Part shown: positions 803 to 3,800 of the stretch, in pieces
Layout: every line of letters begins with the position of its first letter
Numbering within the stretch: position 1 is the stretch's first letter
Source: Ctenodactylus gundi
Taxonomy: Eukaryota
Reading direction: 5' to 3'
DNA: 64,000 nt
NCBI GenBank assembly: GCA_048771875.1
Contig: CM109696.1
Location: 72,888,529 to 72,952,528, forward strand
Made by a program: the position numbers

Positions 803-3800
803 AAAATATATATATAATGATAAGGGAAAGTTAGTTTATAAGTATTTAGTGGAGAAGCATTTTTTTTCCCCACACCTATAATCCCTGCACTCAGGGAGGC
901 TGAGGCAGGAGAATCACAAGTTCAAGGAGTCTGGGTAAGACTCTATCTCAGAATAAAAATATAGTGGCTGAGGATCTATTATGACTCCATGGTACAATGC
1001 TTGCCTAGCAAAGCCAGATACTGATAGACCCCCAGTGCCACAAAGAAAGAAAAAGAAAAAAAAAACCCTCAACGCAAAACGGGTTGTTTTTCTAGCCATG
1101 TTAATGATGCTTTTGCTAGATCAATGTTTCTTAGACTTTTATTCCAGCCAGGTGTGTGTGAGCTGCCTGAATATGTCACAGGCATTTTACCACATGCCGT
1201 GTTCACTTTTGAGATTGTTAGAAACGCACTAACCTTGAAGGAATTTGAGAGATATCTCAAATAAAATTCAAGAAATCAAAAAGAAATGTGTGTAATTAGT
1301 TTTATTAGTTGTTGTTCCATGTGGTTTAATCAAGTATATGGATTTTTTTTTCTTCTTCTTCTTCTTCAGGTCACTGTTTTTCAGACATACGCAAATCAAA
1401 ATCATGTGCCCATTGAGGCAAAATATGTGTTTCCTCTGGACAGCAAGGCAGCTGTGTGCGGCTTTGAGGCATTCATCAATGGGAAGCACATAATTGGGGA
1501 GGTGAGAGTGTGCGGCTTCGAGGCATGCATCAATGGGAAGGGCATGAGGGGAACAGCTTCAAGGCTTGCATCAATGAGAAGCAGATAGTTGGGGGAATGA
1601 GAAGATGCAGCTTAGAGGCATGCATCAATGGGAAGGCATATTTGAGGAGGTGAAGAGGCTGCACAGGGGCTGAGCTGCCTTCAGACTCAGTTCCCATTTA
1701 CTTAGTTCTTTCTTGTCTGAGACTCTCATGGCAGTGAGACTGAGTAACAACCTTATTGAAAAACAGAAATTTTCTTTGAAAAAGCCACTAGCACAATTAG
1801 CCTCCAGTTAAACATTCCTTCCTTGTTAACTGATTTCTCTCCTTCTCTGTCCAGTTATTATAGCATTGTCTTGAAAATTCTTTGTTTGGGCAACTTTTAT
1901 TTTGTTTAGTTTTGTTTTGTTTTTTTGGAAACAGGGTCTCCTCGGTAGTGCATGCTGGTCATGAACTCACTGTGAAGCCCCAACTGACATTGAATTTATG
2001 TTAATCCTCCTATCTTAGCCTCCTGAGTACTGGTATTATAAGCATGTTGTGATATATAGATTACCAGTTACCAGACACCAAACCTCCAAACAATGTCAAG
2101 GCTGGTCTTCAGGATACCTCTGGAAATTGCTATTTCCATGCCCAGTTTATGTGATGCTGGGGAATCAAACTTAGGGCCTTGTGTGTGCTAGGAAAACACT
2201 TTTAACTACTGAGCTATGTACCTAGTCCCAGTGTTTCTGATAGTTATATGAATATCAAAAGTTAAAGGGAAACAGTTGAAAACTGTTAAACTCTGGGGGT
2301 GGGGGAGGTATAGCTGCTATAGATCTAGATGTAGATATTCATAATTTTGTTGTTTCTGGGATAGGGTTTCACTGTGTAATCAACCCAGTCTGCCTTGGCC
2401 TTCCACGTTCTGGGGTTACAGGCATGCACCACTACACCCTGCTCACTCTGAAACATTTTTATAAAAACTGTTCCTGAATTCCCTGCTATAAAAGCTAAGC
2501 TGAACTGAAAGCTATTATATAACTTTTTAAGAAAAAATATGCCAAACAAAATAATAGGGTTGGAGATATAATTTAGTGGTAGAATACTTAAAGCCTTAGG
2601 TTTAATTCCAGCACTTAAAAAAAAAGAAAGGAATATTTGAGTCATTGTTTGTCTATTGTAAGGACTAGCACACAGCTTCACCTAAAACCTGTAATTTATT
2701 AAATTTAAAATAAATGTTTTTGTTAACATAAACTTCCAGTTACAGCCTCCCAGAGTGCTAGAATTACAGGAGTACATCACCATGCCCAAGTAACTTTTGA
2801 TCCCATTTTAAAGAAAATTCTCTTCATTTGTTCTTGTGTAGTTTGTATTTAGGGCATTTTGATGATCTCTCTATGTATGTTTTTCTTCATCTTAGCCTCT
2901 TAGTTTTCTGTTTATTAATGTGCCTGGTATAGTTTTCTCTATTAAAGCCTGAAATTGTCACTATCCCAGTGGGTCTTTTATGTACTTTAGAAATCAGACA
3001 GAGACTAGTTCTGAAGCAAAAATAAAGTGTAAATTTGTTACAAAAGAAGGCACCACAGGCTACTCTGTTTACAGTTCAGTGTTATTTGCACAAAGCTCAA
3101 ACCATGCCTATGCCTGTGTCTAGCAAGGATCTTGGTGTGGAAGTGCATTGGAATGAGGCTGAAGATCTGTCTTTTAGAGTCCTGGAGATCTTTGCTTCTC
3201 ATCAGCTGTGGCTGAGTTGCTTCTGCCTCCACTTCTGCTGCTGCTGTTGCTGATGCAGCTACTGCTGCTAAATCTTCCTCCCCATCCCGCTCCTCCTTTG
3301 TCCTCGTCCTCCCCATCCCCTCTTCCCTCATCCTTCCCCTACCTCTCCTTCCTTGTCCTTTCCCTTACATCCTCCTACTCTTCCCTCCTCCTTTTCTTCT
3401 TTCTCCCTCTCCTTCTTTTATGGCATTAGGGATCAGTCTCAGGGCCTTCACACTGAGTTACATCTTCAGCCTTCTTTTTAATATTTTTTTAAGACCATGT
3501 CTTACTCTAGTCCATGCTGATCCTGGACTCTTTGTAGCCCAGGTGGTCTTGAACTTAAGGCAGTCCTCGGCAGTCCTTCCGCCTCAGTCTCCCAAGTGCT
3601 GTAATCTTTCCATTTTGAGATAGAGTCTCACTGTGTTGCTAAGTTGCGCAGACAGGGCTCAAACTTGAGATTTTCCTATCTCAACCTCTGTTGGGATTAC
3701 AGGCACTATCACCAGGCCTAGCCTGTGTCTTGTGATCCAACAGTGTATTTTTGCAGTTTGCTTGAAGTGTCCTGTTTTTCTGTCATACGACAGAAAGCAC

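Follow-up and report, generated by a model that had tools for sequence, protein, structure and literature searches.

Does the repeated sequence that straddles the end of an internal exon in this stretch of Ctenodactylus gundi DNA represent a genuine duplication of a splice donor, and, if so, does it affect the gene that carries it? An initial annotation of the window (the whole stretch of 64,000 nucleotides analysed here) had drawn attention to the repeat, and the gene, the structure of the repeat, its history and its likely consequences for splicing are considered here in turn.

By sequence homology, the plus strand of the window is assigned to PARP4, the gene for the vault poly(ADP-ribose) polymerase; the window carries its 3' two-thirds, beginning with the first VIT exon and ending with the last coding exon. 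The human PARP4 sequence used as a tblastn query served only as a lead, the alignments being self-validating. The search returned 20 collinear HSPs on the plus strand, from 421 to 59123, which mostly correspond to distinct exons; their identities range from 40 to 94%, and the last one reaches the C-terminus. Exons encoding the VIT domain, then the VWA domain and then the C-terminal MVP-interacting region follow one another collinearly, with the PARP catalytic exons situated further upstream, outside the window. A protein search with the 70-aa peptide encoded by 400-477 and 1370-1501 matched 166 ORF fragments; VIT domains (PF08487/PF13757) are present in all 120 fragments listed from these matches, and some of the matching fragments carry the source name 'poly [ADP-ribose] polymerase'. 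An Rfam search of the whole window at the gathering threshold returned no RNA family.

The coordinates of the features are collected in Table 1. The exon at which the repeat begins comprises 132 nt, or 44 codons, in phase 0-0, and encodes the peptide VTVFQTYANQNHVPIEAKYVFPLDSKAAVCGFEAFINGKHIIGE. Its splice signals are an acceptor ttcag/GTC and a donor GAG/GTGAGA, with the GT at 1502-1503 (slashes mark exon-intron boundaries throughout), and the intron that follows closes with the acceptor tctttcag/ATTAAAGAG. The preceding exon has a firm 3' end at 477 (CAG/GTATGC) and an uncertain 5' end, with candidate acceptors at 352, 360 and 367. Because another coding exon thus ends at 477, the exon at 1370-1501 is internal and the second in the window, and the names 'exon 1' and 'intron 1' first given to it and its intron do not apply.

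Many non-mammalian PARP4 fragments (P0002, P0129, P0138 and others) have a different arrangement, in which this exon runs straight into ...GEVKEKEQAH.... As these fragments read, the intron hosting the repeat is absent, or not called, in the non-mammalian lineages concerned. Some of the intronless fragments may be transcript-derived contigs.

Table 1. Positions of the PARP4 exons, the repeat units and the dispersed elements in the window.
Feature	Position	Strand	Description and basis
Upstream PARP4 VIT-domain exon	353-477	+	...PPNNVKAGLQDTSGNLVPLKDVHIKGKIIDFVAQ; sequence, tblastn HSP 421-498
PARP4 VIT-domain exon	1370-1501	+	sequence, tblastn, homologous ORFs
Unit 1 (U1)	1455-1508	+	54 nt; identity reference
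Intron with units 2-4	1502-4328	+	2827 nt; donor, acceptor, tblastn
Unit 2 (U2), intronic	1509-1549	+	41 nt; 88% identity to U1 over 41 nt
Unit 3 (U3), intronic	1550-1603	+	54 nt; 72% identity to U1
Unit 4 (U4), intronic	1604-1657	+	54 nt; 88% identity to U1
Next PARP4 exon	4329-4415	+	peptide IKEKEEAQQEYREAVSQGHGAYLMDQSAP; donor CCG/GTAGGC; tblastn
Composite SINE copies	100-340, 5906-6145, 14786-15007, 17407-17665, 19824-20087, 22226-22471		
Composite SINE copies, continued	26056-26303, 51205-51443, 57690-57926, 60604-60863, 63775-63999		
Element of ~0.8-1.0 kb	24736-25769, 59613-60380, 61127-62163		third copy inverted

The repeat consists of four head-to-tail units at 1455-1657, in agreement with the original description of an exon 3' end and donor repeated about four times into the intron. 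Unit starts were set at TGTGCGG and identities were calculated over aligned columns. U1 is formed by the last 47 nt of the exon and the first 7 nt of the intron, the authentic donor included, and the exon end quoted in the initial annotation (...GGGGAG/GTGAGAG) was confirmed. U2 lacks its 3' part together with the donor homologue, and in U3 the donor homologue is an AT at 1597-1598, the GT having been lost. By contrast with these two losses, U4 keeps a pseudo-donor, GAG/GTGAAG, with its GT at 1650-1651; it ends as quoted, GAGGAG/GTGAAGAGG, and adjoins ancestral intron sequence that can be aligned to orthologues. The unit size of about 48 bp proposed at first holds as an average, but the actual start-to-start spacing is 54/41/54. 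The exact phase of the units is to be read with a breakpoint ambiguity of ~7 nt, the unit end falling at intron position +7 or at about +13, because TG(T/C)GCR-like strings occur at either end of the unit.

The similarity between the units was quantified in several ways. A repeat search aligned 1461-1541 with 1556-1636 at 81% identity over 81 ungapped nt, with a spacing of 95, and 1489-1505 with 1637-1653 at 88% identity. Ungapped self-identity peaked at offsets of 54 (0.53) and 95 (0.58) over a background of ~0.27, and not one of 2,000 mononucleotide shuffles reached 0.58, the maximum being 0.45. All three downstream units, at 72-88% identity to U1, also lie above the line of 60% below which the initial annotation would have dismissed them as coincidental. 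The chance resemblance of low-complexity sequence, which the purine-rich character of the region might suggest, is therefore an explanation with a practically negligible probability: neither the shuffles nor an identity of 81% over 81 nt agrees with it. It could also appeal to the silence of TRF, which did not report the array either on 1000-2200 (minimum score 30) or on the whole window (minimum score 60); this silence is ascribed to units that are too degenerate and too unequal in length.

Further evidence that the units are true copies came from orthologues, for which Logan SRA contigs were used. Seven distinct orthologous mammalian loci (L001/2, L003, L004, L005, L006/7, L008/9 and L010/11, the last of which appears to match the human sequence) have one unit each, and the best alignments across the exon and flanking intron show ~75-86% identity. 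Positions 1240-1506 and 1680-1884 of the window align to 342-610 and 642-849 of L003, respectively, and the two blocks are separated by ~174 nt in the window versus 32 nt in L003. In blastn comparisons, four window segments (1316-1506, 1508-1540, 1556-1609 and 1610-1883) match one single stretch of L010, at ~1064-1129. The sequence that follows U4, GTGAAGAGGCTGCACAGGGGCTG...TTCAGACTCAGTTCCCATTTAC, corresponds to the ancestral intron start. The window is longer than the orthologues by ~148 nt, which are accounted for by the three extra units, and each of these matches the orthologous exon end by blastn, a result that again argues against chance resemblance.

The survey was broadened with ORF fragments, which often read through the donor and thereby show how the orthologous intron begins in many species. 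Among the 100 read-through fragments that continue for at least 12 residues past the ...CGFEAFINGKH..G motif, none contains the unit twice. When the full read-through ORF was used in a protein search, no match reached the repeated part; the highest query coverage was 77%, and the tail of that match contains no second copy. Metagenome scans for two core motifs 20-50 nt apart and for the lineage-specific exon string gave no matches, and neither these scans nor the protein search yielded a relative closer than the orthologues above. A single unit in an orthologue had been proposed as a sign of coincidental low complexity, but the argument is ill-posed, since a single unit is what a lineage-specific duplication predicts. 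On these comparisons, the array is best regarded as a lineage-specific tandem duplication and not as low complexity.

Together, these observations make it very probable that the array is an old, decaying tandem duplication, specific to this lineage, of a 54-nt segment across the junction of an internal VIT exon of PARP4. Its most likely history comprises two steps, as suggested by the 54/41/54 spacing and the 95-nt register. In the first step, a segment of 54 nt would have been duplicated; in the second, a 'doublet' of ~95 nt, with its start inside U1 and its end inside the second unit, would have been duplicated in turn, which would account for U2 being truncated and for U4 being complete and continuous with the old intron. 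In agreement with the two-step model, the sequence at the U3/U4 junction (ATGAGAAGATGCAGCTT) mirrors that at the U1/U2 junction (GTGAGAGTGTGCGGCTT). Both steps probably took place by replication slippage or unequal exchange, and the similar TG(T/C)GCR motif at the unit boundaries makes a microhomology-mediated slippage plausible. This order of events is probable but not the sole reading: the similarity between U2 and U4 looks greater than that between U1 and U3, and a T>G change (TTC>TGC) is common to U2-U4, so that a different order, or gene conversion, may also account for the array.

The age of the array can be approximated from the doublets (1461-1541 versus 1556-1636), which show 15 mismatches in 81 positions (Jukes-Cantor distance 0.21). 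With neutral rates typical of mammals, this distance would correspond to tens of millions of years, a figure that is rough because U1 is under coding constraint.

This degree of divergence is hard to reconcile with an active minisatellite polymorphic in copy number (VNTR), still expanding and contracting. Active VNTRs are normally homogenised, and the PARP4 units are not: there are only four of them, of unequal lengths and with 72-88% identity to U1, the doublets differ as described above and the array is left unscored by TRF. The tandem layout and the unit lengths of 41-54 nt do fit the minisatellite size class, and the known junction minisatellites of F7 and CBS are polymorphic (PMC1557585); nevertheless, we consider continuing copy-number change at this locus to be very improbable. 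The suggestion that an expansion here could alter donor choice loses its footing for the same reason, as diverged and unequal units point to an old, decaying array and not to an active VNTR, and as the number of copies in F7 leaves the choice of donor unaffected (PMC1557585).

The intronic copies also hold a record of the exon itself. U3 (1583-1590) keeps ATAGTT, like all orthologues (..CACATAGT..), and the exon (1488-1495) reads ATAATT. The change of Val to Ile in the exon (HIVGE to HIIGE) is therefore younger than the duplication, and an older coding state of the VIT-domain exon is preserved in the intron.

How could a duplication of a splice donor be tolerated? When a segment across a donor is duplicated, the first copy would stay on the intact exon and the last copy on the old intron, so that the most upstream donor would still be usable. 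The spliceosome could then keep the donor at 1502-1503, with mRNA and protein unchanged, and the three downstream copies would have become ordinary intron and drifted. The conserved motif is encoded by U1 only, and the conservation of the reading frame in U1 alone, the stop at 1586-1588 and the 148-nt spacing between the donors of U1 and U4 suggest that the upstream donor is used exclusively.

The coding potential of the copies is more limited than first proposed. They had been described as open in frame, but the frame stays open for only 28 codons past the exon (VRVCGFEACINGKGMRGTASRLASMRSR) and is then closed by TAG at 1586-1588, in U3. Nor are in-frame VIT-domain length variants possible, given this stop and a spacing that leaves a remainder of 1 when divided by 3; as 148 nt is not a multiple of 3, use of the U4 donor would result in a frameshift and a premature stop. 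Two candidate isoforms were rejected. An in-frame insertion in the VIT domain was ruled out by the stop and the 148-nt spacing, and the use of units 2-4 as cassette exons was ruled out by the lack of any pyrimidine tract of at least 8 nt in 1502-1700.

The proposal that the fourth copy regenerates a cryptic donor about 150 nt downstream, on the other hand, describes a plausible site, with its GT 148 nt downstream of the authentic one. With a rough 5' splice-site matrix based on the literature, log-odds scores of 9.8 bits were obtained for the authentic donor and 6.6 bits for U4, and of 6.3 and 8.1 bits for neighbouring authentic donors. Judged from its sequence, the U4 donor is a credible cryptic site. 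If it were ever used, the transcript would gain 148 nt and an in-frame stop, giving a non-productive isoform that would probably be a target of NMD.

It could be argued further that this site is used meaningfully, the 148-nt extension and premature stop serving to down-tune PARP4 by regulated unproductive splicing, or that the copies act as decoys for U1 snRNP and affect how the exon is defined. Its score is similar to those of neighbouring authentic donors, yet the authentic donor of this exon is both upstream and stronger. It is the sole survivor among the three downstream donor copies, but one survivor in three is what drift would give. Precedents point in both directions, as the first pseudo-sites are used in the IFI6 and CBS arrays, whereas experiments on F7 revealed upstream dominance even over better downstream sites (PMC1557585). 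Moreover, the array is missing in every other mammal sampled, which speaks against a conserved role. A functional U4 donor is thus quite unlikely, and a decaying duplication with a single authentic donor is the reading we prefer.

The same intron contains a second copy of a splice junction, ~400 nt downstream of the array. It is a perfect direct duplicate of 82 nt (340-421 versus 2047-2128), the longest exact repeat in the window. Its source at 340-421 comprises the last bases of an intron, the acceptor and ~54-69 nt from the start of the VIT exon ending at 477. The copy interrupts a B1-type SINE of ~230 nt (about 1925-2232), and in six other copies of this SINE in the window the sequence runs uninterrupted past the insertion point. 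The 82-nt copy reflects either a templated insertion of very recent date or an error of assembly.

An odd feature of this kind, a perfect splice-junction copy in a SINE only 400 nt away, might raise the suspicion that the array, too, is an artefact of assembly or sequencing, arising from a mis-joined or over-expanded repeat. Artefactual duplications are near-identical, however, and the units of the array differ by 12-28% as well as by indels; they display CpG-type decay (for example, CGG>CAG), and the window is free of N runs. We hold an artefactual origin of the array to be extremely unlikely. Another view would take the two independent junction copies in one 2.8-kb intron, the four-unit donor array and the 82-nt acceptor copy, as marks of a hotspot at which template-switch or slippage events copy splice junctions. 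The U4 pseudo-donor, possibly with the copied acceptor, would then yield lineage-specific, non-productive isoforms that tune the level of the vault PARP. Such a scenario seems to us decidedly improbable, and we retain the interpretation of the array as an old duplication in decay.

Other repeats are abundant in the window. A composite SINE of ~230 nt, with a tRNA-like head and a B1-like body, is present in at least 11 copies with 79-88% identity; the B1-type SINEs were called rodent-type by eye. An element of ~0.8-1.0 kb, probably a transposable element or LTR, occurs in three copies with 80-90% identity, one of them inside a PARP4 intron and the other two a short way beyond the last coding exon.

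For the biology of PARP4, the array is likely to have little effect: neither the coding sequence nor the authentic donor is damaged, and the copies amount to intronic debris. Its value is as a natural example of a tandem duplication tolerated across a 5' splice site, in which the downstream donors appear to have been lost one by one, through deletion in U2, a GT>AT change in U3 and weakening at position +5 in U4.

An arrangement of this type had been considered unusual. Nonetheless, minisatellites whose first monomer lies across an exon-intron boundary have been described for F7, IFI6 (6-16), CBS, LMNB2 and PDGF (PMC1557585). In the human F7 gene, the first monomer of a 37-bp VNTR in IVS7 lies across the boundary with exon 7 (Borensztajn et al. 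2006, PMC1557585). That array contains between five and nine identical donors, and splicing takes place at the most upstream one only, however many copies there are (PMC1557585). The PARP4 array resembles F7 IVS7 in being a tandem array, with unit lengths (54/41/54/54 nt) within the range of 10-100 bp, and in having its first monomer, U1, across a boundary that is set by protein homology and splice signals. As for the donor, an intronic pseudo-site with its GT is seen in one of the three downstream units (U4). The two arrays differ in that F7 IVS7 is composed of identical 37-bp units with 4 exonic nt each, is polymorphic and has all its pseudo-sites intact, whereas the PARP4 array is composed of four diverged units of 41-54 nt with ~47 exonic nt each, and one of its three pseudo-donors survives.

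Similar arrays are located in IFI6 (6-16) intron 2, CBS IVS13, LMNB2 and PDGF intron 4 (PMC1557585). In IFI6 and CBS, splicing also takes place at the two nearest pseudo-sites, and in LMNB2 and PDGF the authentic donor alone is used (PMC1557585). The first unit straddles the donor in these four genes as it does in PARP4, but their arrays contain 10-25 or more homogeneous units, while that of PARP4 is decayed and has few units, and the pseudo-sites closest to its authentic donor have been lost. Artificial constructs with two copies of a donor offer another parallel, since the transcript is normal when one donor copy is preferentially chosen; unlike the PARP4 array, they are not natural evolutionary events, and their results are disputed between laboratories. 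We conclude that the PARP4 array is a decayed member of the known class of boundary minisatellites and that this instance is a new one. In evolutionary terms, it could offer a parallel to the 5'-to-3' donor-selection model derived from F7 IVS7.
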